Below, one piece after another: positions 8,262-51,694 of a stretch of DNA of 64,000 nucleotides (position 1 is the stretch's first letter; each line of letters opens with the position of its first letter). Below the pieces are notes generated by a model. The model searched no databases, was not told the DNA's origin, and was given only the letters and a program-made list of their open reading frames with translations. The translations under genes and the position numbers were made by a program. The stretch is from Squalus acanthias (lineage: Eukaryota): positions 124,436,001-124,500,000 of the forward strand of contig CM059431.1 in the NCBI GenBank assembly GCA_030390025.1, in the 5' to 3' direction.

Positions 8262-9441
8262 AAGGAAGAAATAACTTACATTTATATAGCACCTTTTATG
8301 ACACCCGGAGATCCCAAGGCACTTTAGAGCCAATGAAGTACTTTTTGAAGTGTAGTCACTGTTGTAATATAGGAAATGTGGCAGCCAATTTGCAAACAGC
8401 GAGGTCTCACAAACAACAATGAGATAATGAAAAGATAATGGGCCGGATTTTGCGACCCCCACGGGTGTGTACAAGGTGTGTACGCCCATAGGGGCCGCGC
8501 AAGTGTTGGGTTTAGGCATGCGAAGTGCATGCGCTAAAACCCAACAACGTGCGATCTGTCAAGAATGCTCTTGACAGATCGCACACATGCTCTGGAGAAG
8601 GGCCTCCGCGGGCAGGGAGTTCCGCTTTCTGCACAACCTCCGCCCACTGAAAGCCTTTAAAAATCTTACGCCTGGTAAAAGCCTGTGTAAGGCCTGCTTT
8701 TACCAGTATAAGAGTTAAAAAAATAAAAAAATAAAATGTTTTCACTCATTTATAATTTTAAAATACTTTTAAAAAAGGTAAGTTTATTTTTAGCCCCGTA
8801 AAAAACTTTAATTATTTTTTTCAAAAAATTAAATTTTTGTTGAAAATATTTAGTTTAATGTAATTTTAATTAATTTTAAATATATGATTTTTAAAAAAAA
8901 ATATTGAATGTTTAACTGTTTTTTAAGTGATCCCCATTCATACTTTTGACAGTTCCATGCATAGAGACCTGTCAAAAGTGTGAAGGGGGATTCCCTTCTT
9001 TGATTGGTTCCCCATAGCCCACGTGATCCCAGGGACGCTTGCGAACCGCATGCGCCCCTGAGATACCTGGGCCTCTGCGCATTACGGAAGACCGGAAGTT
9101 TCGGGATCTACGGAGCCAGCAGGTAAGTGCGTAGACTTTTTTCCGATCGGAGGCATCCGCCCGCAGGAAGCCTCTGATCGGAAATTCAGGCCCCATCTGT
9201 TTTTAGTGATGTTGCTTAAGAGATAAATATTGACCAGGACACCAGGGAGAGGTCCCCTGCTCTTCTTCAAAATAGTGCCATGCGATCTTTTATGTCTACT
9301 TCAGATGGCACCTCCAGCAGTGCAACACTACCTCATTACTGCACTGAAGTGTAAACCTAGATTATTGTACTCTGGAGTGGGGCTTGAACTCACAACCTTC
9401 TGCCTTAGAGGCAGGAGTGCTACCACCTAGCCAAGGCTAAC
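8262..9441 (-). mobile_element. SINE split by a MITE insertion
   Basis: SINE tail at 8262-8439 and SINE body/head at 9194-9441 are collinear once 8440-9193 is removed. Confidence 0.7.
8440..9193. mobile_element. Harbinger-type MITE with AT-rich core
   Basis: TIRs GGGCCGGATTTT...AAATTCAGGCCC; related inverted copy at 59627-60380. Confidence 0.65.
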
Positions 9442-10579: not shown

Positions 10580-11245
10580 GGGGATGAATTTCCATGTGAA
10601 GTTCTCCCGTTTGTCCACTGTAACTTCAACGGAAGAGCCACAGAATCCCTGGAAGAATGGGATCAATGGGTTTCCATGGCTCTTCCAGCGAAGTTATGTT
10701 GGATGCGCGGAAGAAACGCCTTTGTTTGCGGGCCTTCACGGGAGCATCGAAAATTAAGCTGGGTCTTTTGGGTGCAAGGACAGTAAGTAATAGGTGCATT
10801 TTAAAAGGTTTCGAATACATTTAAAAAAAAATACACTAAGGAACTGATGACTGTAACCAAAATAACTAGAAAATAGTTTTGTATATTCTTAAAAAGTCAT
10901 TTTCAGTCATTTGAAATCAGGTTACTCAAAGGTGGTGCATCGATACTGCGATTAAAAATGCTTATTTTTTGTGATTAACCCATTTTCAGCTGCATTAATC
11001 AAACTGCACCAAGTTACCACTCTTAGATATATCAAGGAATACATTTTAAAGCAACATTTAAAAAAAAAGTTATGTTTTAAAACACTGCCCAATTGCACTG
11101 GTTCATGGCAGATTTTGTGTTTGGCGACATGCAAATGAGTTTAAGCGGAAATGCCAGGAAAAAAAACACTTTTGAAAATGGACGCGATTTAGGGCGCAAT
11201 TTGTGCCGGAATCGCCAATTGTACTCAAAGCGGAAACTCTACCCC
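10580..11245. mobile_element. Harbinger-type MITE
   Basis: TIRs GGGGATGAATTTCC...GGAAACTCTACCCC. Confidence 0.55.
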
Positions 11246-11292
11246 AGTGTGCGTAGTTAGAGCACTGTCATTTTATTCTCAGTCTCTCACTC

Positions 11293-13035
11293 ACACACAG
11301 AAACATGCACACAGCTACACACATACACATACCTACAGAAACATGCACACAGGTACACACATACACATACCTACAGAAACATGCACACAGTTACACACAT
11401 ACACATACCTACAGAAACATGCACACAGGCACACACATACACATACATACAGAAACATGCACACAGGTACACACATACACATACATACAGAAACATGCGC
11501 ACAGCTACACACATACACATACCTACAGAAACATGCACACAGCTACACACATACACATACATACAGAAACATGCACACAGGTACACACATACACATACCT
11601 ACAGAAACATGCACACAGGCACACACATACACATACCTACAGAAACATGCACACAGGCACACACATACACATACCTACAGAAACATGCACACAGCTACAC
11701 ACATACACATACATACAGAAACATGCACACAGGTACACACATACACATACCTACAGAAACATGCGCACAGGTACACACATATACATACAGAAACATGCGC
11801 ACAGCTACACACATACACATACCTACAGAAACATGCACACAGCTACACACATACACATACCTACAGAAACATGCACACAGGCACACACATACACATACAT
11901 ACAGAAACATGCGCACAGCTACACACATACACATACCTACAGAAACATGCACACAGCTACACACATACACATACCTACAGAAACATGCACACAGGTACAC
12001 ACATATACATACAGAAACATGCACACAGGTACACACATATACATACAGAAACATGCGCACAGGTACACACATACACATACCTACAGAAACATGCACACAG
12101 GTACACACATATACATACAGAAACATGCACACAGGTACACACATACACATACCTACAGAAACATGCACACAGGTACACACATAACATACTACAGAAACAA
12201 TCGCACGGTACACACATATACATACAGAAACAAGCACACAGGTACACACATATACATACAGAAACATGCGCACAGGTACACACATACACATACCTACAGA
12301 AACATGCACACAGGTACACACATACACATACCTACAGAAACATGCGCACAGGTACACACATATACATACAGAAACATGCACACAGGTACACACATATACA
12401 TACAGAAACATGCGCACAGGTACACACATACACATACTACAGAAACATGCACACAGGTACACACATACACATACTACAGAAACATTGCACACAGTACACA
12501 CATACACATCCTACAGAAACATGCGCACAGGTACACACATATACATACAGAAACATGCACACAGGTACACACATATACATACAGAAACATGCGCACAGGT
12601 ACACACATATACATACAGAAACATGCACACAGGTACACACATATACATACAGAAACATGCACACAGGTACACACATACACATACAGAAACATGCACACAG
12701 GTACACACATACACATACCTACAGAAAAATGCGCACAGTTACACACATACACATACATACAGAAACATGCACAGAGGTACACAGATACACATACCTACAG
12801 AAACATGCACACAGGTACACACATACACACAGAGACATGTGCATAGGTACATACATACACATACATACAGAAACATGCACACAGGCACACACACACATAC
12901 ACACAGAAACATGCACGCAGGTACACACATACACACACATACAGAACAAAGCCCACAGGTACAAACATACACATATACACAGAAACATGCACACACACAG
13001 GTGCATGCATTAACATGCACATAGAAACATGCACA
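11293..13035. repeat. Minisatellite with 38-bp and 34-bp units
   Basis: Tandem ACAGAAACATGCACACAGGTACACACATACACATACCT and a shorter ...CACATATACAT variant; degenerates at the right end. Confidence 0.97.
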
Positions 13036-14499: not shown

Positions 14500-15170
14500 G
14501 GGGGCGATTTTGGCCGAATACATTAGGCACTAAAGAGCCTCCGAAGTGGCCAAGATAGGGTCTTAAGCTGCAATGCGGTTTAGCCCGTGTTCAGCACAAG
14601 ACGCTAGCTTGGTAAAGAAGTTGAAATGCGCACTCGGAACAGTCACCCGGAGGATCGTTAAGGGGCTGATTGACAATTAAATTGCCTGCTAGCGCTCATT
14701 AAATAGGCTGAACGTCATTTTGGTGGGTATCGCTTCATTTAATGACCTCTCCTAACAGCGACCAGCTGAACAGGAGTAAACAATTCCTTGCCGAGGATTT
14801 CGAGCGCTACTTAAAGCCATGCTCAGATTTCAATGTTCACTTGCTGATTGAGATTGACTGACTACACTGCGTTTGAAGAGGACTTTTGAGACACATCAGG
14901 AGACTTTCTGGGTCACTTTGTCAAGACTTCACCAACACTCTATCAACATTTTTCTTGGATATTTTCTCAGGAATTCACCTAAAAAGAGTGAGTGCTGTGC
15001 TACTCTACATTATTAGACACGTTACAGGAGTCACCAGGAGAAAGAGAGTGCTTGATCATGGGCATCTTGCTATGGGTCCCCCTTGCTCTGCGTGAGGAAT
15101 TGGAGGAGGAGATGAGGGCAGGTAGAGCAGCACCAGCTGCTGCAGGAGAGAGGGACAGGAGAGCGAGGAG

Positions 15171-16892
15171 TGTAAGGGATTCCTGACCCTGCGTGTCTCG
15201 CAGCCTGTGAGATTCACGCGGCTCTGTGCAGCCTGTATGTCAGTGCGGGTCTAGGCCTGGTTGCCTGTTCTGGTCTCCAGCCAGTCTGGGAACACTAGAC
15301 ACACCTGTGAGTGGTTCGAATCACTCTCCCTTACGGTTCTAGACACTGGACTTAGATGCGAGAGCAGTAATGGAGATAAAACTCATGTAGACTTGGTTTG
15401 AATGGTACGAAATGGAAAATCTTTATTGCATGATACTTAAGATTATGAAATACATGTCATAAGCACAGATTAATGACAGTACAATCTTACAAACAGTTAT
15501 ATAGTCGATCTTAGGGAAACGAGGAACGAACGGCACAAAGTAAATAGGGGCACACATTACAAATATCCTTAATCCTTAAACCCTCCCCTATCAATATCTA
15601 TCCTAAACTAGCTTCGTAGGATCTCGAGACTCATGCTCACCACTCGTGATAACTCGGAGAAATTCCGAATAGCTGATCGGATGTTTTTCACCGCAGCACC
15701 CACGTGTCGGTCAGGAGATCTCCTGGTCCCACTTGTTTACTTGCTTCTGCTGCTCCGGCTAGTAGGCTGGACCGTCTGCTGTGATGAAGACCTGTGTTGG
15801 TTGGCTTAACAGGTACTCTTGGAGCACAGTTGTCAATATCATCGATACGATGTGTTTTCACGTTCCAATCTCCTTGGACACAGTCCCGTTATCGTCGATG
15901 CAATATGTTTTGTTAAAAGTTCAAAATAGAAATCTTCCTGGCGAGGAAAACTTGGCTGATCGACCTACAGGCGCGGTCGGGATTTACTGACCGTGGCGAT
16001 GGATATGGTCTTCCTCTCTTCTCCTCTCATCTCATCTCATCTCATCTCATCTCGGGCCTTTGGTTCCGCTGCCAGTTACCAACATAGGTCTTCGTTACGC
16101 GACACGAGGTAGATCCGAACGGATCAGAAAGTTCAACAGTCTTTTCAGAAGAGGCAACGGGCAAGCAGAAGCCCAACTACGAGTACACAGGAGCAGCCAC
16201 GAGGTTACGAATCGACCGGATAAAAGCACAGGAGCAAGCGAGCGAATGCAAGAGCAAGAGAGCGAATGGACGGTTTGGAGCCTGCAATTATAGTGCAAAA
16301 ATCTTCCGTTTCCCGCCCAACTATAATGTCCATTCTTTGTTTAGGGTTTGGCGCCCAAATGTCTTGTATGGGTGATCTCCGTTCTTAATGGGTTTCGGGG
16401 CTACTCATAAATGTCTGAGTACCTGTTAATATTTCTCCCATTGTTAAATCGGTCGGTGTTCTCCCTGGAGGGGTTTGGGGCTTCCAAGTGTCCTGTATAA
16501 CTACCTGCTAACGGCTCTCTCATCGTAGAGTCGTTGGGATTTTACATATTAATGTCTTTTGGATGGGCCCTTGAGTACTCGGTACAATGGCTTTCCTTTG
16601 TACCTGGGAGACCGATTCCAGTATCTATGTTTATACTGCAAACCCATAATGTCTCGTGTATTATCTTCACTGTGCTGAATCGTTATCGATCTTGCACAAA
16701 TGTTTAATGGAACGCCATCTTGTCTGCCTGTTGAAAAGTCTAGAATGTTGTGTCACGAGGTGCGGCGGCCATTTTACAGGCTGCTTGTGTCCAATTTAAA
16801 CCTGCCAGCATTCTGCTGAAATAAAAGCTGTTTGAACGAAACTTTGTGTTTTCTCCTTATTAATCAAATCGCGATATATTGCGAATTCTACA
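15171..16892 (-). repeat. 3' LTR (1722 bp)
   Basis: Direct repeat of 22967-24688 at a constant offset of 7796; TGTA...TACA termini; short ORF translations identical in both copies. Confidence 0.97.
15422..15427 (-). terminator. Putative LTR polyadenylation signal AATAAA
   Basis: GCAATAAAG on the minus strand, conserved in both solo LTRs. Confidence 0.6.
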
Positions 16893-16904
16893 GTCCCTCC
16901 TGTT
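16893..16904 (-). other. Polypurine tract
   Basis: AACAGGAGGGAC immediately precedes the 3' LTR start (TGTAG) on the minus strand. Confidence 0.65.
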
Positions 16905-17338
16905 GATGCGAATAACTCCGCTTATCGTATCAAAAATCACAGTGGTGAGCAATATTATCTCGATTTCTCTCCGAATCCAGTAAATTAATCCCATAATTTT
17001 TAACTTATCTAGGGTCTCGGTGTCGTCCTTATTTCCCAAGAAAATCACATTTTATATCACCGTAGGCATTATTTGCCCTTAAACTTACACCACTTGTTTT
17101 CCTTCCCGGCGTAACCAGGCCGATACCTCACGCATCACCTGTATATTTGTCTTTTATTCAGGGAAAGGAAAAAAAAAAACAAAACCTAAAACCAAACAAT
17201 CAACACCATCACCAAAATAATCAAACCCCAACTCTTAAAACATGTCGAGTTTCCAACGTATTTACAATCTCTGAAAATCTTATATGAGTACAAACTTCCG
17301 CGGCGCACGCGGCGAGCGGGAGTGACGCCATTTTCCGA

Positions 17339-19690
17339 TTACACGGTGCTCTCATCGTGCACGCGCACGTAACGTTCTCGCCACTCTCCCGTGTTTTCAT
17401 GCTTGGTGAGGCGTTTGTCTCTTTTACAATGTACGACCAATAGGTACACTACAATAAACACTTGGCATACGACTAAAATGTGGGAGGCTATTCTAATCCA
17501 TGAAGGCACTTCAATATTAGTGAACAGATTCCACCACGGTGGAACTACTATGTCCAGAATGTCTGTTCCTATTTCGACAGTTTTCTGCTCTAATGTATAA
17601 AAATGTTTCTGTGATACCGCGACGGCTTTCAGAAGTTTGGTTAAATGTTCAGGGAGAGGGGGAATGAGGTATCCAAAATGTGCGACAAATCGCTGCAAGT
17701 CGGTGAAATTCTCTTTTACTGTGAGATGAACAGTGGATGGTTCAGGGATTGGGATAATTCGCTGTTGTGCTACTTGAACTTCAGCCCTGGGTTTAAAACA
17801 GAAACTGCTGTCACTCACCGGACACCGGCTACGGTTTCCATGCTGGTAGTGTTGCGCTGCAGTGGTAACACAATATGTTCCACCCCCGATGTATGCTACC
17901 TGCGGAGGCACATGATCTTGTGCCATTGCCTCCATGGTGCAATTCATGGACTTGGCGCCAGCCGTTCTGAACCCGCACTGTGGTGTTAAAAAGGCATTCA
18001 AGTGCTGGGGGCACAGTATTATGTGTGCTCCCCTGCCACGACAACCAGAGAGATCTGTACCTGTCATCGTTTGCTCCCAGCGGATGACGTAAGGTGGAAC
18101 CGCTGCGTAACGAATGTGGGCTCCCCCCTGAATGACACCAATGTTCTCTACCCGATACACCGGGGCGGGCTTTGCTGTGTCGCCCAAAACCGGCATGCGT
18201 AATACTATTCCCATAATAGTATGGTTTGAACGTCCGCAGTCCACGGGGACTGGGTAAGCTTCTGAAGCTAGCCTGAGCTGGCACGGACTTAATGCGTTCT
18301 GAAAAGGGTGGAGCGCCCGTAGGTGTTTGTTACTTATCCAGGACGGAACCAAACCTTGTTTTAAATCCTCCAAATTACTGCGGCCCTCGCCCAGTAACCA
18401 CGCCCCGTAAAGCACGCACACCTCGTTCTGCGCAGCTTGATCGGATGCATTCCGATCTTCCCTGATCAGGGCATTTACCGTACGCGCATGTTTCTCCAGC
18501 TCTGCTATAATTTCCTTTAAATGGAGAGTCATGGCTTGGTCCTCGTGTAGACCTGACCCTACCACTTTATTCTCATCTGTTAGAATGTCTTTTAACTGTG
18601 TTTTTAAACCATTAATCTGGGTCTGCAGCTCCACACTGTCTAGAGCGTTGACCACAGATGTCCCTGTGTTAAAAGCAGTGAACGCATCGTTCACCAAACC
18701 CCTTCTTTGCCTCCCTACTTGATCCAAAACTTCCTGCGGTGCGGTGTACAAACTTGTCTTATCAATTTCTGCAAAATCAAACTCGTAAAATTGTCTGAAC
18801 ATCTTGGTCAACAGGACCTGATACAACTGTTCCGTCTTTTTGGGGCACCACTCTGGTAACCGTACCTCAGTGAGATTTAAAATCACCGAGGCCACCGCGT
18901 AATGTACCCCCTGAAATAGTATCTGGTCTGTGGGGACCAGTACCAAACCATTCCCGGGTCCCTTACTAGTTTTAGGGCACCCTTCTTCCTCAGCTAGAAC
19001 CACCGGAATCGTGGGCGGGGCTTTGCGTGGGCGCGTAATGAGCTCAGTGGCATTTACTGGGATCGGGGAGAATGGGGCTCCGCACCCCCTGGTGCTCGCA
19101 TCCCACCTCATCCCCTGTCCGTTATCCTGCCATTGATTAATAAAAAATATGGAGATGCCTTTGGGGCAAACGTACTTTGACCCCCACATACATACATAAA
19201 TCCCCTCATCCGGTTCCCACCATTTGTCCCAACAGACTTTCACTTGTCCGTCTGTCCCCGTAATTGTCCGATGGGTATTATTACCCAGTCGTTCCCACTC
19301 GACCGAAGAGTTTCTCATAGTTTTGCTCAGCTTTCGCAGCCACCAGCATCGGCTCAATGGGACCTTCCCACTACAAGTCAAACAAATCCGTTTGCCGACG
19401 GTGACGCTGATCCTGGGTGCGATGATCCTTACTTTGGGGCACAGTAAAGAAGTCTCTTGGTAGGCAAACCCCGATGTGCTGGAATACTCCGTTGAGTTCG
19501 TTCCCAGCCATCCTGGCCACCTTCCCTTGTGGAAATAGGTGCTGGTCCCCTCTGCCTTCCGTCTTCCGGTCCCATCCACCGCGATGGGGGCCGTGTCCCC
19601 GGAACATCCAAACACCACGACATCCTTGGTGCGGCCTCGATAGGCCAATCCACATCCGATTGCCACGAGCAATACTAGAATTCGTTCCAT
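17339..19690 (-). CDS. env: Envelope glycoprotein: Ig-like domain plus F-type class I fusion protein (~783 aa)
   Basis: Signal peptide MERILVLLVAIGCGLA from ATG 19690; furin site RQRR at 18701-18712; fusion peptide GLVNDAFTAF; heptad repeat; Cys-rich region; TM helix ILVVCQVFIVVYLLVV; short tail; uninterrupted frame. Confidence 0.9.
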   Translation of the reverse strand: MERILVLLVAIGCGLAYRGRTKDVVVFGCSGDTAPIAVDGTGRRKAEGTSTYFHKGRWPGWLGTNSTEYSSTSGFAYQETSLLCPKVRIIAPRISVTVGKRICLTCSGKVPLSRCWWLRKLSKTMRNSSVEWERLGNNTHRTITGTDGQVKVCWDKWWEPDEGIYVCMWGSKYVCPKGISIFFINQWQDNGQGMRWDASTRGCGAPFSPIPVNATELITRPRKAPPTIPVVLAEEEGCPKTSKGPGNGLVLVPTDQILFQGVHYAVASVILNLTEVRLPEWCPKKTEQLYQVLLTKMFRQFYEFDFAEIDKTSLYTAPQEVLDQVGRQRRGLVNDAFTAFNTGTSVVNALDSVELQTQINGLKTQLKDILTDENKVVGSGLHEDQAMTLHLKEIIAELEKHARTVNALIREDRNASDQAAQNEVCVLYGAWLLGEGRSNLEDLKQGLVPSWISNKHLRALHPFQNALSPCQLRLASEAYPVPVDCGRSNHTIMGIVLRMPVLGDTAKPAPVYRVENIGVIQGGAHIRYAAVPPYVIRWEQTMTGTDLSGCRGRGAHIILCPQHLNAFLTPQCGFRTAGAKSMNCTMEAMAQDHVPPQVAYIGGGTYCVTTAAQHYQHGNRSRCPVSDSSFCFKPRAEVQVAQQRIIPIPEPSTVHLTVKENFTDLQRFVAHFGYLIPPLPEHLTKLLKAVAVSQKHFYTLEQKTVEIGTDILDIVVPPWWNLFTNIEVPSWIRIASHILVVCQVFIVVYLLVVHCKRDKRLTKHENTGEWRERYVRVHDESTV

Positions 19691-19702
19691 CCTTCCTTGG
19701 TT

Positions 19703-19730
19703 CCTGTGATCAGATAGAATGAGGTAGCCA
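19703..19730 (-). promoter_or_regulatory. Putative env splice acceptor
   Basis: CTACCTCATTCTATCTGATCACAG|G lies 13 nt upstream of the env ATG. Confidence 0.55.
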
Positions 19731-19878
19731 GCCTCGCAAGAGTCTCTGGCTTTTGTGAAGGGTGAGCGGGTCCCCTGACCTCGCCTCACGTAAATTTCAA
19801 CGTTTGCTGAATAAACTTCCTCTAAACCTAACCTTAAAACTCCCATCATTTTATCGTTTTCTGTTAAAAACACTACAA

Positions 19879-19972
19879 ACTTAGCCTTATTAAAACTTAA
19901 AACTTAACCTTGAACTATAAACTTAAAACTTAACCTTGAACTATAAACTTAAAACTTAGAACTATAACTTTA
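19879..19972. repeat. Short AT-rich tandem repeats between ORF X and env
   Basis: Repeated AAACTTAAAACTTAACCTTGAACTAT-type units. Confidence 0.8.
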
Positions 19973-20001
19973 CAGTGCCGCCCGTTCTCAGGGCGGCCCC
20001 T

Positions 20002-21150
20002 TTAAACTCTGAGAAGGCTGCTGCGAGCTCTTCCCGACGGTGGGAGGGCACTGACCCTTCCCTCTGATCTGCCGCAGCCTGTTGCTGCGCTGACCCTTCC
20101 CTCTGATCTGCCGCAGCCTGTTACTGCTGCGATGTGGCCGGTCTGTACCCAGGTTATCTTAACCTGAAGTCTACGCCTTGGGGCAGTCTGGGGACATGAC
20201 CACATCCTCCTGGGCTGGGGTTCTCTACTTGACCTACGGGGAGTTGCTATGGGCGGGGGTTCCGTGACGGACGGACCGGGTTCCGAGACCTCCAACGGGA
20301 TGACCTGGGGTTCCATCACAGTCGCCGGCTCCGCCTCCGCTGACTCCGCCTCCCTAACCTCGGGGCTGGCAGTTCGTGGCTCCGCCCTGCTCGGCCCAGC
20401 AAGCGGCCCTTCACTCGTGATCTCTGCCTCCCCTGAGGACTGGACGTTCAAAGCGGGCGGCCACATCTCTGGGAGCCACATCGGTACTCTCTGTGCTCCT
20501 ATAGCGGCTGGCCCTGCCTCCTCTAGCTCCTCCCTCCTGTCCTCGGGACCTGCAGCTTGTGTGTCCACCCTGTGTGGATCTCTACCTATAGGCCCCATTC
20601 CCTCCAGACCGTTCCTCAGGAACCACCCGTCATCATCACTATGCTCATCTGCACTATCCTCATCTGACCAGGGTACCCTGGGTTCTTCCTCATCTAACCC
20701 CCAACTCCAGAAAAACGCTGCATGATCGTCCGGGATGTCCCTTCCCCTGATGCAAGCTGCTATGCCTGCCTGTGTGCCTTGTGGTCCTACCTGGGGCTGT
20801 GCTTTCCCATTGGCGGGATTTACCCCTGTAGTTTTCCCCTGCGCACCCGGCTGGTACAGTTTGCATTGGTTTACATCCTCATACTCCCGGCTTTTGGCTA
20901 CCCTGTAGGCTGCTTTTACCTCACTAAGCTGCGCTTCTAGCCTGAGCACGTCTAACTTTCCCATTGATCGGGCGTTCTCCTCCCGCAGGGCCTGCTCTCT
21001 AAGCTGCCCTTCCAGCCCATCTATTTTCCCTATTAAGCGGGCGTTCTCCTCCCGCAAGGCCTGCTCTTTTAACCTGGCCTCCTCACCGCAGACCCCCTCC
21101 TGTGCGTGTCTTTTAAAAGGACACAGGTAGGCAGGCTGCGTGGGCTCTAG
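20002..21150 (-). CDS. ORF X: unknown coiled-coil, acidic and Pro-rich protein in frame with gag (~382 aa)
   Basis: Open from directly after the gag TGA (LEPTQPAYLCPFKR...) to the stop at 20002-20004; no protease, RT or integrase motifs. Confidence 0.7.
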   Translation of the reverse strand, partial: LEPTQPAYLCPFKRHAQEGVCGEEARLKEQALREENARLIGKIDGLEGQLREQALREENARSMGKLDVLRLEAQLSEVKAAYRVAKSREYEDVNQCKLYQPGAQGKTTGVNPANGKAQPQVGPQGTQAGIAACIRGRDIPDDHAAFFWSWGLDEEEPRVPWSDEDSADEHSDDDGWFLRNGLEGMGPIGRDPHRVDTQAAGPEDRREELEEAGPAAIGAQRVPMWLPEMWPPALNVQSSGEAEITSEGPLAGPSRAEPRTASPEVREAESAEAEPATVMEPQVIPLEVSEPGPSVTEPPPIATPRRSSREPQPRRMWSCPQTAPRRRLQVKITWVQTGHIAAVTGCGRSEGRVSAATGCGRSEGRVSALPPSGRARSSLLRV

Positions 21151-21156
21151 TCATTG
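21083..21156 (-). promoter_or_regulatory. Putative stop-codon readthrough signal (CAA UGA CUAG plus 3' hairpin)
   Basis: TGA at 21153-21151 followed by CTAG; downstream complementary blocks CGCAG/CTGCG and CCTGTG/CACAGG. Confidence 0.7.
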
Positions 21157-22962
21157 GGTACTATTAGACGGTCCTGCGGCACCTACGGGGCCGGTTGCGA
21201 CCGCCACCTGTCCACGCCCATTCAAGTCTAGCTTGCGCATGGCTCCTAACACTGCTTCGAGGTCGTCGGGAGGGGTGGGTGCCTTGGCTTCCTTAGCCGG
21301 GACAGGCGCCTGGGCTCGGACCGCGGGATTTTTATCCTTGGAATCCTTCCAAGGGTTCCTGCAATGCTTGCGCCAGTGCCCTGTCTTTCCACACCCGTAA
21401 CAAGCATTACTTGCCTGTGGGGCGCGATTCCCCTCCTGATGCCACTCTCTTTGATACGGGGCTGCGGGTCGTACCTCATGTACTCTTCCCTTAAAGGGAC
21501 GTGTCGTCATACCCCTTATATTACGATAACCTAACGTGAGTCGATTCAAGACCGACTCTTCCGTAAGGTTGAGATCATTGGGATCGAACCATGCTTTTGC
21601 CTGCTCTCTAACGGCTGGTAAACTGTTGGCTATTATGCACCTAAGCTAATGAGTTAAAGCGGCGCCTTCCACATCTTCGCGCTCGGGCGCACCTAGACAG
21701 CTGCGCTCATATACTGGCCACAGCCTGTCGGCAAAAACCTTCGGGGGTTCTCCCTCCATCTGCACTGTCTGTCCCACTCTAGCAAACGGACCTCCGTCGT
21801 TCGCCCCCAACACTTCTAGGACCTCATTCTTTAATTCCTCATAACTCTTGTTTCCCCTCTTGCTCTCGCCTGAGAGACACTGAAGGACCGAGCTGTCTAA
21901 TGAGAACAGCAGCATTTTTGCTGTCTCCCCATCATCGCAGCCGTTAATGGCTGCGGCTTGCTCAACTTCTCTGAAATGTACGGAAGGGTCGTCTATCTCG
22001 GTCAGCTTCCGTACGTGATTTATCATAGCTCTCAGCTGATGTGAACTGTGAGGCAACACCAGCTGTCCGAGGAGATCCCCCGGTTCTTCCCCACCGTTTC
22101 TGCTTGGGCCCCTTTTAATACCCGTTACTGGATACAACGATCCCTTTTCTACTTTCTTTTCAATGGGCTCTTTTGTTTCTTCCATTGCTTCCTCCCTAAC
22201 CCAGGTTTCTGAATAGCTGGGTGGCGCGGAGGGCGCAGTGGCTACTACTTCTTCTGCTTTACTTGGTGGGGATTTTCTAAATCTCTCATTTACTAGCGGC
22301 TGGTGCGCCGACGGATTGATAAGGCACACCATGCCGTTCGCATTGTTCACGGCCTTTTTGAGGTTCTCTATCTCCCTTTGGCAGGCGCTATGGTCGGCTC
22401 CCTGAAACTTATCCTCAAGGGCCAACTTATATGCCGACCTAACCCCCATTAAGCTCTCTTCTTGAGTTCTTATCTGGGCAGCTTGGCGGTTACATCTTTC
22501 CTTTAACCTGCTCTCATTCAATTTTGCCTCAGTGACCTGGCACTCGAGATAATCTATCCTTGTCTTAAGGTGACTGGAGACTTCCTGGCTTTCCTGGTGT
22601 AACTCATTTAAATTCTTAATGAGCACCTCCCCTCCAGAAACCTTCTTCTCCATTTCTCCCTCTAAATGACTGATTCGAGCTACTAGCGCTGTAATGGTCT
22701 GGTTTGAAATCTGAACCTGCCTTTTGTAGCACATAAGCCAGACTGCTTTCTCAAGTGTCTTTTTATGTTCTTTACTATCTGTCCACCTTTCAGCTGCCTC
22801 TAGTGGGCTCTTATCCGCTAACAATTCACTTATCCATTTCTTAGTTAGATTAACCTTTCCAAACACATAATCCGCTATCTTTTCCTGCATAACATTTCGT
22901 ACAGTCATTCCAAAATCTAACACACTACCCTCTCGCTGCCAGTGTCCTGCCGCGGTCGCCAT
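21151..22962 (-). CDS. gag: Gag-like polyprotein (~603 codons) with one internal in-frame TAG at 21646-21648
   Basis: ATG 22962 (MATAAGHW); coiled coil; PSAPPSY at 22213-22233; helical capsid-like region; CYGCGKTGHWRKHC knuckle at 21361-21402; ORFs 21646-23013 and 21151-21549 share a frame. Confidence 0.88.
22944..22961 (-). other. Primer-binding site complementary to tRNA-Arg(UCG)
   Basis: TGGCGACCGCGGCAGGAC lies 5 nt after the 5' LTR and is complementary to ...GUCCUGCCGCGGUCG-CCA, the vertebrate tRNA-Arg-TCG 3' end as recalled. Confidence 0.85.
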
Positions 22963-22966
22963 TTTC

Positions 22967-24688
22967 TGTAAGGGATTCCTGACCCTGCGTGTCTCGCAGC
23001 CTGTGAGATTCACGCGGCTCTGTGCAGCCTGTATGTCAGTGCGGGTCTAGGCCTGGTTGCCTGTTCTGGTCTCCAGCCAGTCTGGGAACACTAGACACAC
23101 CTGTGAGTGGTTCGAATCACTCTCCCTTACGGTTCTAGACACTGGACTTAGATGCGAGAGCAGTAATGGAGATAAAACTCATGTAGACTTGGTTTGAATG
23201 GTACGAAATGGAAAATCTTTATTGCATGATACTTAAGATTATGAAATACATGTCATAAGCACAGATTAATGACAGTACAATCTTACAAACAGTTATATAG
23301 TCGATCTTAGGGAAACGAGGAACGAACGGCACAAAGTAAATAGGGGCACACATTACAAATATCCTTAATCCTTAAACCCTCCCCTATCAATATCTATCCT
23401 AAACTAGCTTCGTAGGATCTCGAGACTCATGCTCACCACTCGTGATAACTCGGAGAAATTCCGAATAGCTGATCGGATGTTTTTCACCGCAGCACCCACG
23501 TGTCGGTCAGGAGATCTCCTGGTCCCACTTGTTTACTTGCTTCTGCTGCTCCGGCTAGTAGGCTGGACCGTCTGCTGTGATGAAGACCTGTGTTGGTTGG
23601 CTTAACAGGTACTCTTGGAGCACAGTTGTCAATATCATCGATACGATGTGTTTTCACGTTCCAATCTCCTTGGACACAGTCCCGTTATCGTCGATGCAAT
23701 ATGTTTTGTTAAAAGTTCAAAATAGAAATCTTCCTGGCGAGGAAAACTTGGCTGATCGACCTACAGGCGCGGTCGGGATTTACTGACCGTGGCGATGGAT
23801 ATGGTCTTCCTCTCTTCTCCTCTCATCTCATCTCATCTCATCTCATCTCGGGCCTTTGGTTCCGCTGCCAGTTACCAACATAGGTCTTCGTTACGCGACA
23901 CGAGGTAGATCCGAACGGATCAGAAAGTTCAACAGTCTTTTCAGAAGAGGCAACGGGCAAGCAGAAGCCCAACTACGAGTACACAGGAGCAGCCACGAGG
24001 TTACGAATCGACCGGATAAAAGCACAGGAGCAAGCGAGCGAATGCAAGAGCAAGAGAGCGAATGGACGGTTTGGAGCCTGCAATTATAGTGCAAAAATCT
24101 TCCGTTTCCCGCCCAACTATAATGTCCATTCTTTGTTTAGGGTTTGGCGCCCAAATGTCTTGTATGGGTGATCTCCGTTCTTAATGGGTTTCGGGGCTAC
24201 TCATAAATGTCTGAGTACCTGTTAATATTTCTCCCATTGTTAAATCGGTCGGTGTTCTCCCTGGAGGGGTTTGGGGCTTCCAAGTGTCCTGTATAACTAC
24301 CTGCTAACGGCTCTCTCATCGTAGAGTCGTTGGGATTTTACATATTAATGTCTTTTGGATGGGCCCTTGAGTACTCGGTACAATGGCTTTCCTTTGTACC
24401 TGGGAGACCGATTCCAGTATCTATGTTTATACTGCAAACCCATAATGTCTCGTGTATTATCTTCACTGTGCTGAATCGTTATCGATCTTGCACAAATGTT
24501 TAATGGAACGCCATCTTGTCTGCCTGTTGAAAAGTCTAGAATGTTGTGTCACGAGGTGCGGCGGCCATTTTACAGGCTGCTTGTGTCCAATTTAAACCTG
24601 CCAGCATTCTGCTGAAATAAAAGCTGTTTGAACGAAACTTTGTGTTTTCTCCTTATTAATCAAATCGCGATATATTGCGAATTCTACA
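22967..24688 (-). repeat. 5' LTR (1722 bp)
   Basis: Direct repeat of 15171-16892, followed on the minus strand by the PBS. Confidence 0.97.
24084..24114 (-). promoter_or_regulatory. Putative LTR core promoter (GC box plus TATAA)
   Basis: GGGCGGG at 24114-24108 then TATAA at 24088-24084; similar arrangement in both solo LTRs. Confidence 0.5.
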
Positions 24689-26055
24689 GGAGGACTCTCA
24701 GCAGGGGGCGCTATCCACCCAGGGTCTTCAGAGGGCAATACACCTACATTCACATGACCCAAGACCAGTGCATGAGGAGGGTGCGCTTTACCAAAGAGGT
24801 CATTACAGAGATCTGTGGCCTTGTGGAACGAAGACTCAGATGTCAAGGCACAGCCAGGACTGCATTGCCTGTGGCAGTCAAGGTCACAGTAGCACTTAAT
24901 TTTTATGCTACTGGAACCTTCCAGGCTGCCACAGGTGATAGAAGTTACATATCGCAATCCTCTGTGCTCTTATGCATAAGGGAGGTTGCTGAGACCCTAT
25001 ACACTCTGAGGAATGACTAATATCATTCCTTATTGCCAGAGAAGACCAGAGGCAGAGAGCTCTAGGGGGAGAAATTTGTGTTAGCCAGTAAAGTTGCTGG
25101 AGGTAACAGTCGCTGAAAATAGGTGCAACGCTAACAGAGCAAAATTCATCTGGGAGGATGGAGACTGTTGGCGCAGCGCTTACCTGCCATGCAACGCCAT
25201 CCTGGTGACGTTGCTGGAGGCATCCAACCCAAAGTTGGTGTGCAGGTGCGGCGTTCGAGCCTCTCACAGCCTCTGGAGGCAAGTCTGTGGAGCTCACAGG
25301 GAATTGAGGGCAATGAAGAGCCCTGAGAATTAAAGTGGCCATGCACACTGAAGCAATACAAATTAAAATGAAGTGAAACAATGCAGTTTTTACATAGGGT
25401 TGCATAGGATATACAGCACAGAAACAGGTCATTTCAGCCCTTTCTGCTTCTTTAAAAAAATATTTAACATTAAAAAGAAGTCCCAAATGTGAATATTCAG
25501 CTCGCATAAGCTAAATTCCCTTCCTAACCTCAAAAAATGGGAAAAATGCCTCAGCACGAACACAAGTGGCTCAACAAGCCAGGGACGGGGCACCCAGGGT
25601 CTCGCACGCAGCACTCCAGCTTTGTGCAGGGCGTCAACACTGCAACACAGGCCCTCTACCCGCAGGGGCCAGAGGCCCTCCAGAAAGAACGATGTGGGAT
25701 TACATTACCGAGGCTGTCACTATGTCGCCCCCACCACCTGGCTCCAGTGCCCAAAGAAGCATCATGACCTCAGACCACTAGTCAAGGTCAGTGAATGCAT
25801 TTTCAAAAGCCACCTCCTACTAACTGCACCACTAGCCTCACACACTGCTCATGCACGACCCCATATCACTCACCTACCAACAATCTGCACCAATCAGAAG
25901 GCACAGCTCCCATTCCTAGCCTTACCTTACCTCCTTCGAGGAGACTGTGCAGATCATTCTTGGCAGGAGTATGGCTGAGCCCTTGGCTAGTGGCGGGGCT
26001 GAAAGGATACAAGATGCTGGTATCCTCATATGTTACTCTCCTTCTGGCATGCACC

Positions 26056-27147
26056 TGGTTGGCAGACAGGAAGCAAAGAGTTGGAATAAATGGGTCTTTT
26101 TCCGAGTGGTAGGCAGTGACTAGTGGGGTACCGCAGGGATCGGTGCTAGGACCCCAGCTATTCAGAATATATATTAATGATCTAGACGCGGGAATTAGAT
26201 GTAATATCTCTAAGTTTGCAGATGACACAAAGCTGGGTGGGCGTGTGTGCTGTGAGGAGGGTGCAGAGAAACTCCAGTATGATTTGGACAGGTTGGGTGA
26301 TTGGGCAGATGCATGGCAGATGCAGTATAATGTGGATAAATGCGAGGTTATCCACTTTGGTGGCAAAAACAGGAAGACAGATTATCATCTGAACGGCAAT
26401 AGATTGGGAGAAGGGGAAGTGCAACGAGATCTGGGAGTCCTTGTGTACCAGTTGCTGAAGGTAAGCATGCAGGTGCAGCAGGTGGTTAAGAAGGCAAATG
26501 GTATGTTGGCCTTCATAGTGAGAGGATTCGAGTACAGGAGCAAGGATGTCTTGCTGCAGTTGTACAAGGCCTTGATGAGACCATACCTTGAGTATTGTGT
26601 GCAGTTTTGGTCGCCTTATCTTAGGAAGGATGTTCTTGCCATGGAGGGAGTGCAGCGAAGATTCACCAGGCTGATACCTGGGATGGCAGGAATGACGTAT
26701 GAAGAGAGATTGGGTCGATTAGGCTTATATTCGCTAGAGTTTAGAAGAATGAGAGGGGATCTCATTGAAACTTATAAAATTCTAACAGGACTAGATAGAC
26801 TAGATGCAGGAAGGATGTTCCCGATGGTGGGCGAGTCCAGAACCAGAGGTCACAGTCTAAGGATAAGGGGTAAGCCATTTAGGACTGAGATGAGGAGGAA
26901 TTTCTTCACCCAGAGAGTGGTGAACCTGTGGAATTCTCTACCACAGAAGGCAGTTGAGGCCAATTTATTAAATATATTTAAGAAGGAGATAGATATATTT
27001 CTTAAGGCTAAAGGGATCAAGGGATATGGGGAGAAAGCAGGGACAGGGTACTGAATTTGGATGATCAGCCATGATCTCATTAAATGGCGGAGCAGGCTCG
27101 AGGGGCCAAATGGCCTACTCCTGCTCCTATCTTCTATGCTGCTATGC
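26056..27147 (+). mobile_element. 5'-truncated CR1 LINE with an open RT C-terminal ORF (26116-27054)
   Basis: SGVPQGSVLGP, KFADDTKL, LEYCVQFWSP motifs; CTATG-type tail. Confidence 0.93.
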
Positions 27148-48236: not shown

Positions 48237-49884
48237 TGTAGAGTTTCGCAATTATCGCAATTCAAAATAACATGAGACAAGCAATTGATCATTTTTGTTG
48301 GGCAAGGTGCTGTCCTGATGATGGGGGACACGGGGGCCTGTAAGGTGGCCGCCGCGCATCGTGGCAGAAGCTTCCAGAGACACAGTGGGCAGACAAGATG
48401 GCGTCGAATATACATTCAGTATGAGATCGGATCGTGCTCGGTGCGCATTGAAAAGGCAGGATGCAACCCGTTTGCGTCCTGAACAATGGCAATGATATAA
48501 GTGCTGGAATCGTTTCCTACGCACAGTAAGGATCGTTGGGCGGGGCCGTCGAGAACCCATCTAGACACATCAATACACAAATACCCCCCCGGCTCAACAA
48601 TGAGAGAGACATTGGCGGGTGATTAAGCCAGTATTCGGGGGGCCCCAAAACCAGTCGAGGAGACGATTCATACACATCCTGGCTGGCTCAACAATGGAGA
48701 AGGTATTAACGGATAGTTGGCCAGTTTCAGGTGTTACCGAAACCCGTTAAGAAGATGATCGCCCCATGCTGGGAGTTTTGGGCGCCAAAATCACACAAAG
48801 AATAAACGTTTAGATTTGAGCGGGAGATAAGGCCGACAAAACAGTATAACTATAGAGGACAAATGTCCATCGGTCTCTTCTTGAACTCTTCCTTGACTCT
48901 GGGCTCTGGATTTGCTTGATTCTCTTGACTCTCATGACGCTGGCTGAAGCTCTCTCTCTTCCTGAAGCTCTTGCTGAACTCTCTTGACTCTTGACTCTTA
49001 GCCGTGCTGGTCGGTTATTCGAGTGTTGGGTGGAGCTCAATCGGAACGAGCCACCTCGACAGGGCAAGTAACAGGGTACACCATCCCGAGTGTCGGTAAA
49101 CGGTGTCCGGACCCAGAGGCCCGAGTGACGAGAAGAAAGACGAGAAGAAAGACGAGAAGAAATTCCACGTGCCGCCACGGTCAGTAAACCCCGACCGCGC
49201 CCGAAGATATAACGACAGAACCCATCTTTGAATTCTACCGACTACTACATGTACCGTTTCCTTTGAATTCTACGGATTGCTGCACGATCCGGTCTGAGGC
49301 CATCAACTGCTTCATGACATCAGGGAGTCTGGCTTGCCTTTCACGGCAGCGAGAGTAAACAAGTGGGGTGCAGAAACCCTCACAACCACGTGACAGTAAG
49401 GCGCTGCAGCGAAACGAGCTGAGTGCCTCACTTTAAATTTCCGAAGTGAGCCGAGTGGTGAGCATGTTTTCTGATCCTACAAATCCAGACGTAGTTTAGG
49501 TATATTGAGGGAGGGTGGGTTTTCTAAGGTTAATGTATAATGTGTTCCCCCTTTTACGATGTGCCGTGTGTTCCCCATTTCCATAGACCAAGTTTTATGA
49601 ACGTGTGTATACTTGTACTCTCTTTGATCTGCGCCTATGACATGTATTTCATGATTTTAGACGCCATGCAATAAAGATATTCATTTTGTGCTATTCAACC
49701 GGGTCTATTTGAGTTTTCTCTGCATTACTGCTCCTTGCATCTAAGTCCAGGTGTCAGAACCGTAAGGGCGAGTGGGTCGAACCACTCACAGGTGCTTACT
49801 GCAAAAAGTCTGGCCGGAGACCAGAGCAAGCAATAGTATAGGCAACGAAGGCCTCACCTCGCACCAGTACCGTGACCCCTTACA
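48237..49884 (+). mobile_element. Solo LTR (1648 bp) related to the 15171-24688 element
   Basis: TGTAG...CCCCTTACA; CTGG TSD (48233-48236 and 49885-49888); collinear similarity to the provirus LTR. Confidence 0.93.
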
Positions 49885-50031: not shown

Positions 50032-51694
50032 TGTAAGGGGTTTTGTGTCGTGCTTGTATCGCAGGCGGTGCTGGTACGGGGTTAGGCCTTCGCTGCCTAA
50101 TACTATTGCTTGCTCTGGTCTCCGGCCAGCCTTGTTGTAATAAGCACCTGTGAGTGGTTCGACCCACTCGCCCTTACGGTTCTAACACTGGACTTAGGTG
50201 CGAGAGCAGTAATGCAGAGAAAAACTCAAATAGACCCAGTTGAATAGTACGAAATGGAAATCTTTATTGCACAGCGTCCAAGATCATGAAGTACATGTCA
50301 TAGGCGCAAATTAACGAGAGTACAAGTATACATACATTCATAAAGCTTGGTCTATGGTAATGAAGAACGCACGGCACATCGTAAAAAGGGGAACACATTA
50401 TACTTTATCCTTAATAAAACCACCCTCCCTTATCAATACCTACACTACATCTAGATTTGTAGGATCGGGAAACATGCTCACCACTCGTGATACTTCGGAG
50501 AATTTTAAAGTGAGGTGCTCGGCTCGTTTCGCTGCAGCGCCTGACTGTCACGTGTTTTGAGGGGTCTCTGTACCCCACTTGTTTATTTTCGCTGCTGCGA
50601 CAAGCAGGCCAGGCTCCCCGTTGTCATGAAGAACTCGACAGCACTCGGGCCCGGCTGTAGAACTCAAAGAAAAGTCTTCCTGTACCGACACCAGTTGCCG
50701 GTAGAATTCAAAGAAGAGTCTTTGGCCAGTTCGTGCAGTAACCTGTAGAGTTCCAGAAATGGGTCGAATATTTTCGGGCGCGGTCGGGTTTTACTGACCG
50801 CGGCGGCACGTGGATTCTTCTCCTCTTCTTCTCGTCTCGTCTCGTCTCTTTTCTTTGGGCCTTCGGGTCCAGACACCGTTTACCGACCCTCGGGATGGTG
50901 CACCCGGTCACCGGCCTTCGTCGAGGCGGCTCGTTCCGTTTGAGCTCCACCCAACATTCGAATAACCGTCCAGTGCGGCTAAAAGTCCAGAGTCAACAGT
51001 CCAGAGAAACAAGAGCACGAATCAAGCGAATAAGAGTCGAATCAAGAGCATCAGCCGAGATAAGAGAAAAATAAGAGAGCGATGGACATTTGTTGTCTAT
51101 AGTTATAGTGCTGTGTTCCCTTATCTCCCGCCCAAATCTTAATGTTTGTCCTTTGTGAAATATTGGCGCTCAAAACTCCCAGCATGGGGTGATTCTTGTC
51201 TTTAATGGGTTTTGGTACCACCTGAGACTGGCCAACTACCCGTTAATGTTTTCCCCATTGTTGAACCGGCTCGGAGCCTCCCTGGCTGGGTTTTGGGGGC
51301 CCCCGAATACTTGTTTAATCACCCAAGAATGGCTCTCTCATTGTAGAGCCGTGGGGGTATTTGCGTATTGATGTGTCTGGATGGGCCTTCGATTGCCCAG
51401 TACAATGGTCCTTACTTGTGCATGGAAAACGATTCCAGCACTCATATCTTTTGCTATTGTCACAAATGCAAACAGGTTGCATCCTGTCTTTATCAGTGCT
51501 TATCGAAAATGTTTATTCGAACGCCATCTTGTCTGCCCACTGTACTTCTGGAAACTTCTGCCACGATGCGCGGCGGCCATTTTACAGGCTTCTGTGTCCT
51601 GTTTAATCATGACAGCATTTCGTTTAAATAACCTGATCAAACGAATCTGCTTCTATCTCGTTATTTCGAATCGCGATAATTGCGAAACTTAACA
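50032..51694 (-). mobile_element. Solo LTR (1663 bp) of the same family
   Basis: TGTAAGGGG...CTTAACA on +; CAAT TSD (50028-50031 and 51695-51698). Confidence 0.93.

Follow-up and report, generated by a model that had tools for sequence, protein, structure and literature searches.

ORF X, a frame of 382 codons lying between gag and env in a young retroviral element of Squalus acanthias, is, judging from its sequence, a remnant of pol in which a Gag-like helix is joined in frame to the C-terminal tail of an integrase. The element is 9518 nt long and lies on the minus strand of the window (the whole stretch of 64,000 nt analysed here), with the layout LTR-gag-X-env-LTR. Gag, X, env, the LTRs and the primer-binding site, with their parts, are all on that strand; coordinates are positions of the window. 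X is open from stop to stop at 20002-21150. Residues 93-382 (20005..20874), delimited by alignment with a protein named P0026, correspond to a Pol C-terminal tail, that is, the end of an integrase SH3-type domain followed by a long tail. Residues 20-92 (20875..21093), recognised by a Gag profile and by predicted helices, hold the Gag-like helix with a 23-residue duplication. Residues 1-19 (21094..21150) are possibly a 5' stub of pol, a natural guess from position only, and overlap a modest hairpin. An earlier note on this DNA had proposed that X replaces pol, and this was borne out, as a Pfam search of the element found no pol enzyme domain (protease, reverse transcriptase or integrase core). 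The note had also called X a gag-derived accessory protein. A Gag-related helix is indeed present, but X does not stand as an accessory gene of its own: the integrase tail of pol makes up 290 of its 382 residues, and its first ATG is codon 63, inside the second helix repeat. A word-indexed search with X gave no match.

The 5' LTR (1722 nt, 22967..24688) and the 3' LTR (15171..16892) are identical (0/1722 differences) and are flanked by a 4-nt target duplication, GGAG (15167-15170 and 24689-24692), indicating that the insertion is very young. The ends of the genome are kept: besides both LTRs, a primer-binding site can be read in the sequence at 22944..22961, presumably of the tRNA-Arg type and overlapping the first gag ATG, and a purine tract (16893-16904) precedes the 3' LTR. 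At least half of the sampled words of the element were present in 20 of the 24 sequencing runs listed (8 studies, five organism codes); the best run may be the window's own source. In the four runs that were aligned, 403 to 21420 contigs per run fell on the element. All 30 bins of the element, X included, were covered in every one of these runs, indicating that the gag-X-env layout is a family trait and no accident of a single copy. The family is young and abundant, and is without enzymes of its own. When the window copy was compared with the family over 15100-24800, plus-strand T>C differences (93-109 places) exceeded A>G differences (54-65 places) in four of four runs, which amounts to an asymmetry between the strands.

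Some contigs revealed sub-lineages with a broken env or larger deletions. A 1-nt env deletion at 18123 was frequent in run X1 but in no other run, and a contig from run X3 jumps from 16377 to 21114. In two predicted proteins, P0034 and P0020, part of Gag runs on into the beginning of an Env-like sequence; these are further deletion derivatives or gene-model artefacts.

The origin of the X tail was revealed by database comparison. When gag and X were read through and compared with 1.84 billion proteins, 26 matches were obtained, and only P0026 matched X (E 7.8e-11). In pairwise alignment (E 6e-18) the similarity runs from N94 to the last residue of X, with a shared end point. P0026 starts with an integrase C-terminal SH3-type domain: its residues 12-49 match SH3_Tf2-1 at E 0.002, which is under the curated cut-off, and it scores 0.86-0.90 against integrase C-terminal clusters. 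Conservation with P0026 is uneven along X. Residues 93-160 and 301-382 are conserved (0/1000 shuffles each), residues 161-300 are not (score reached by 198/1000 shuffles), and residues 1-92 do not match (831/1000). The tail is predicted to be disordered, with pLDDT mostly under 50. A motif RRS-x-x-EPQPR...APR (X 305-327, 20170-20238) is conserved with P0026 amid the diverged tail; it may be comparable to the basic motifs of integrase tails. The Trp/acidic block (X residues 146-177) and the Pro/Glu stretch pointed out previously are present. The tandem repeat of the tail (20051..20127) keeps the frame as had been claimed, but its unit is 39 nt rather than 36 nt (13 codons, 2.0 copies, 97%); it covers a TGCG motif common to P0026.

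Three lines of evidence place the junction between the two parts of X at codon 93: the start of the P0026 alignment, the end of the predicted helix and the departure of one X3 contig from the window at 20873/20874. The 14 loose letters of this contig, read by hand in the X frame, give K-W-F-H, the motif preceding INQCK in P0026. It is a single case among the loose ends listed, of which 1220 more exist, and this integrase-type loose end is a candidate trace of a pol-bearing helper. We considered X 73-92 as a degenerate integrase strand. This candidate was excluded because P0026 has no match in X 1-92 and because 20873/20874 is the exact point at which the pol-type contig diverges. The end of the Gag match drawn in the earlier note (VNQC against HSAC) is likewise a coincidence, NQCK being integrase. 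A search with the X/P0026 alignment yielded no longer protein, which is weak evidence, and no related loci were found in the viral contigs or metagenome contigs scanned, so that these searches gave no full Pol. PDB sequence searches with P0026 and with Env gave nothing meaningful.

Next, we analysed the helix. A profile of 11 related Gags, from which the window sequences were left out, matched X 46-95 with E 6.8e-7 and 19.7 bits. None of 3000 shuffles (plain, windowed and heptad-preserving) reached this score (shuffle maximum 12.3 bits), and the heptad-preserving shuffles accounted for 0/1000. Of the 187 frames and decoys scored, none but gag and X exceeded 2 bits (15.0 bits in X vs. 1.9 in the best of the other 185); the decoy set contained only two real coiled coils, both Env helices. 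The motif A-A-Y-[RK]-[VL]-A occurs at the same place in the X helix and in the Gag relatives, and a structure model predicted helices at X residues 20-59 and 65-93. These sequence comparisons make it likely that the X helix is Gag-derived.

The claim of resemblance had originally been based on the Gag of the element itself. That match was weak (BLASTP E 1.3), while the match to related Gags was clear. The Smith-Waterman score of X against its own Gag (68) was equalled by 1, 5 and 5 per 2000 shuffles in three kinds of shuffle, and no DNA likeness between the own gag and X was seen at the place of the helix. P0005 was the best of five Gags compared pairwise with X (E 4e-5, reached by 1 to 9/2000 shuffles); P0006 was marginal, and P0004 (skate) and P0008 were non-significant, the score of P0004 being reached by 789/2000 shuffles. 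Copying from the own Gag is thus unsupported, since other Gags match X better, and the combination of a weak own-Gag match with a clear profile match suggests a distant or long-diverged Gag as the source. EQALREENAR occurs twice in X, as had been reported, and forms part of a 69-nt (23-codon) repeat (83% over 54 nt). In a comparison of 12 Gags at the motif, none had this repeat; P0005 has a different, 18-residue repeat. It is improbable that the helix came from elsewhere as a generic coiled coil and resembles Gag by convergence, a view that would leave the rest of our reading unchanged. It would account for the BLASTP value and the lack of DNA likeness, and the score among the frames was only 15 bits, with two Env helices as the real coiled-coil decoys. 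However, no heptad-preserving shuffle reached the profile score, and the shared motif is co-located in the Gag relatives. A complex prediction for the Gag helix (85-220) and the X helix (20-98) gave a score of 0.00, with the alignment unused and the controls not folded, and so counts neither for nor against contact between them.

The gag gene (21151..22962) probably encodes an N-terminal coiled coil, a capsid and a CCHC knuckle; its relatives P0004, P0005 and P0011 show 38-51% identity. Those relatives of this Gag that have names belong to a skate and to sharks, in line with a cartilaginous-fish host. A long helix was predicted in Gag by the structure model. The gag of the window copy has a premature in-frame stop at 21646-21648, where P0004, P0005 and P0011 are open, and a Foldseek search with the model of the shortened Gag gave capsids in its top rows, only at E 0.1 or weaker. 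In P0004 and P0011 the start is arranged as in the element, where the first gag ATG overlaps the primer-binding site (22944-22962).

The gag and X frames are continuous, with one UGA between them. This stop stands in the context UGA-CUAG (21147..21153), a likely readthrough signal with X downstream in the same frame. The context is rare: it occurs at 1 of 84 TGA triplets in the internal region of the element and at 6 of 2305 in the window. A 207-nt contig from run X9, which has another organism code, crosses the gag stop with 0 differences, and the C-termini of three related Gags fall close to that of the element's Gag. In alphaviruses and in 23 human genes, UGA-CUA(G) serves as the type II readthrough signal (PMC13517186, PMC9841425, available text). 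In human genes, readthrough of UGA-CUAG is given in the same available text as at least about 1.3% (PMC13517186, PMC9841425) and as about 1.5-17% (PMC9841425). The element has in common with type II sites the exact UGA-CUAG and a long in-frame ORF. By contrast, the retroviral readthrough cases covered in the available portions of these reviews use UAG, or UGA as UGAAGA, UGACGA or UGAAGU, and none has UGACUA (PMC13517186, PMC9841425). From its context and the frame behind it, the gag UGA is probably read through to give Gag-X. If so, a UGA-CUAG gag junction is added to the loki-like retroviral lineage; no paper combining lokiretroviruses with readthrough was found in open-access texts. A hairpin after the gag stop reached z -2.75 over 154 nt and -2.0 to -1.3 in other spans, and ranked outside the best 15 of 200 windows. 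With a z that varies by span and such a rank, we rejected it as an established stimulator.

Expression of X by itself would be the alternative route. X would then be a stand-alone accessory protein, translated from a spliced RNA or starting at the codon-63 ATG, and would act in trans by binding or hijacking helper capsids. The Gag-like helix and the several ATGs within X agree with this. Nevertheless, a start inside the second repeat would leave only a minor part of the helix, the integrase tail makes up three quarters of X, and the in-frame leaky stop is a simpler route, and we consider a stand-alone X very improbable.

The two 23-codon repeats of X differ at 0.46-0.61 of silent sites vs. 0.10-0.21 of non-silent sites (pN/pS 0.21-0.34), and the silent-site bias gave Fisher p values of 0.001-0.008 over four spans. 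Calculated for each of the six frames, pN/pS was lowest in the frame of X (0.29 vs. 0.55-1.14 in the other five). A plain third-position test gave p 0.11-0.14. The sequence of the two helix repeats thus bears signs of purifying selection in the frame of X. The 69-nt duplication is far older than the present insertion, and the silent-site bias may have arisen in the donor Gag before capture. The suggestion in the earlier note that frame-keeping duplications hint at selection therefore holds for the 69-nt duplication, which shows the signal, but not for the near-identical 39-nt one, which shows none by itself.

Variation among copies gave a similar division of X. Over its 382 codons the X frame contains no stop, compared to 4-23 stops in the other five frames. 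Among the best-supported 12 of 94 indels, none was in X or gag, one was in env and 11 were in the LTRs, in a count that favours LTR places, some of them counted in both LTRs. A single contig has 21 gap letters within X, and the net result is in frame. Among the substitutions listed (40 of 606 variant places), non-silent changes made up four of five in X, all at residues 157-382, vs. three of 11 in gag and env together. These data, from samples that are thin, suggest an open frame in which the helix is under constraint and the tail only loosely so. As there are many contigs per run and five organism codes, selection on each part of X is measurable from the copies.

A different interpretation of these data is that X is a neutral relic. 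One chimeric founder would have been amplified recently, and the region would persist because the RNA needs it, for env splice acceptors and for packaging, with the protein idle; X would then be an ordinary deletion relic. Several observations agree with it: the LTR identity points to a very young burst, four of the five X variants listed among 40 of 606 places are non-silent, the tail is predicted to be disordered, the window copy moved or persists despite its broken gag, and repeated AG acceptor-like runs lie directly 3' of X. The excess of silent over non-silent differences between the repeats, the contrast between the open X frame and the five others, and the absence of X from the best 12 of 94 indels do not fit, and overall we find neutrality rather unlikely. 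We think it less likely still, and quite unlikely, that translation alone matters, with readthrough shielding the unspliced RNA from nonsense-mediated decay while the content of X drifts. With readthrough, MoMLV reporter RNAs are protected against decay (PMC4917968, available text), and a shield would fit an open frame with a drifting tail. However, it leaves unexplained the silent-site bias of the repeats and the Gag-like helix at the junction, and about 4.8 kb of RNA is still downstream of X's own stop.

Our own proposal is that Gag-X is made by readthrough in place of Gag-Pol and acts in cis for its own RNA, while helpers provide the enzymes. It is drawn from sequence and from analogy, and we hold it tentatively, at somewhat less than an even chance. 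The parent would have carried the stop signal at its gag-pol junction and passed it on, and low levels of Gag-X would be made across the UGA-CUAG stop of gag. Gag-X would enter particles through its Gag part, the extra helix might add Gag-Gag contacts, and, if the element is comparable to IAP 1-delta-1, the fusion protein could then act in cis to the benefit of the RNA that encodes it. The enzymes would be supplied by pol-bearing relatives. If the premature gag stop of the window copy is older than the insertion, its RNA moved without its own Gag-X; together with the identical LTRs, this counts against a strict need in cis, provided that the stop predates the insertion. An extended version, which we consider unlikely, is that of a parasitic provirus that has swapped its enzymes for a second, duplicated Gag helix at Gag-Pol-like levels. 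Gag-X would be a selected adaptor taking the Gag-Pol slot in mixed particles and biasing them toward the pol-less RNA, the open env would keep infectivity, and the element would be a vertebrate satellite retrovirus with its own evolved protein. Helper-dependent endogenous retroviruses often outnumber their helpers.

The nearest known system is the mouse non-autonomous ERV IAP 1-delta-1, whose fusion protein acts in cis (PMC6466679, PMC7411935, available text). Like the present element, it lost pol enzymes internally, was left with an open fusion frame, needs helper proteins and is a highly successful mobile subtype (PMC6466679, PMC7411935, available text). According to the same portions of these sources (PMC6466679, PMC7411935), a deletion fused gag directly to pol in this class II ERV, which mostly lacks env, whereas the element keeps the gag stop, has X behind a leaky UGA, carries a second Gag-like helix at the junction and has an open env. 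The cis effect is reported for IAP 1-delta-1 and would apply to the element by analogy only. In our literature searches, IAP 1-delta-1 was the sole case found of a leftover fusion frame reported as helpful in cis. The element works like IAP 1-delta-1 but is no IAP member, given its skate and shark Gag relatives and its open F-type env. BHIKHARI of zebrafish is pol-less and young, as is the element, but lacks X and, as stated for Bik-2, env (bioRxiv 2024.03.25.586437, available text).

The env gene (17339..19690) is open and has features of F-type fusion proteins (Atlas 0.94 to the PF00523 cluster, 209/256 features), and its sequence includes RQRR and a hydrophobic C-terminal stretch. Pfam gave no match of Env to the PF00523 family at E up to 1. 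F-type Env is also known in Ty3/gypsy elements. Lokiretroviruses resemble the element in an F-like Env with a basic cleavage site, an integrase end W-x-H-x-N-Q and probably in a Gag with an N-terminal coiled coil, theirs being 'smc' fused to the Gag front (PMC7947760, available text). In that text their Pol ends at most a few tens of residues past W-x-H-x-N-Q, compared to about 290 in the element, and the accessible main text does not mention cartilaginous fish (PMC7947760). The lokiretrovirus pol set (PR, RT, tether, RNase H, IN) is absent from the element copy. The RT of lokiretroviruses groups as sister to Retroviridae; having no such pol set, and hence no RT for placement, the element is classed as loki-like only. 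We ruled out that X as such is the 'smc' gene of lokiretroviruses, for which the available supplement headings give a position at the Gag front (PMC7947760). No description of the element was found in the literature within open-access coverage. It is new in form in its inserted duplicated Gag helix, its kept env and its UGA-CUAG junction.

Further features were observed in the window. A perfect 7-bp GC stem lies directly after the X stop (19977-19997). Ahead of env there is a 26-nt tandem with AG acceptor-like runs (19890-19963), which shows length variants in other contigs. The right flank of the element (24689-25020) is presumably a relic of a Harbinger-type transposase; Pfam gave no match in this segment. 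It is followed by a LINE-type RT fragment at 26113-27051 (RVT_1, E 1.5e-10). A long C/A-rich tandem array occupies 11170-13000, and an ARAGORN tRNA call at 9367-9437 probably marks the head of a SINE. A related family, with 69-78% identity to the element LTR, has left two solo LTRs at 48237-49884 and 50032-51694, in opposite orientation and 147 nt apart, with target duplications of 4 nt each (CTGG and CAAT).
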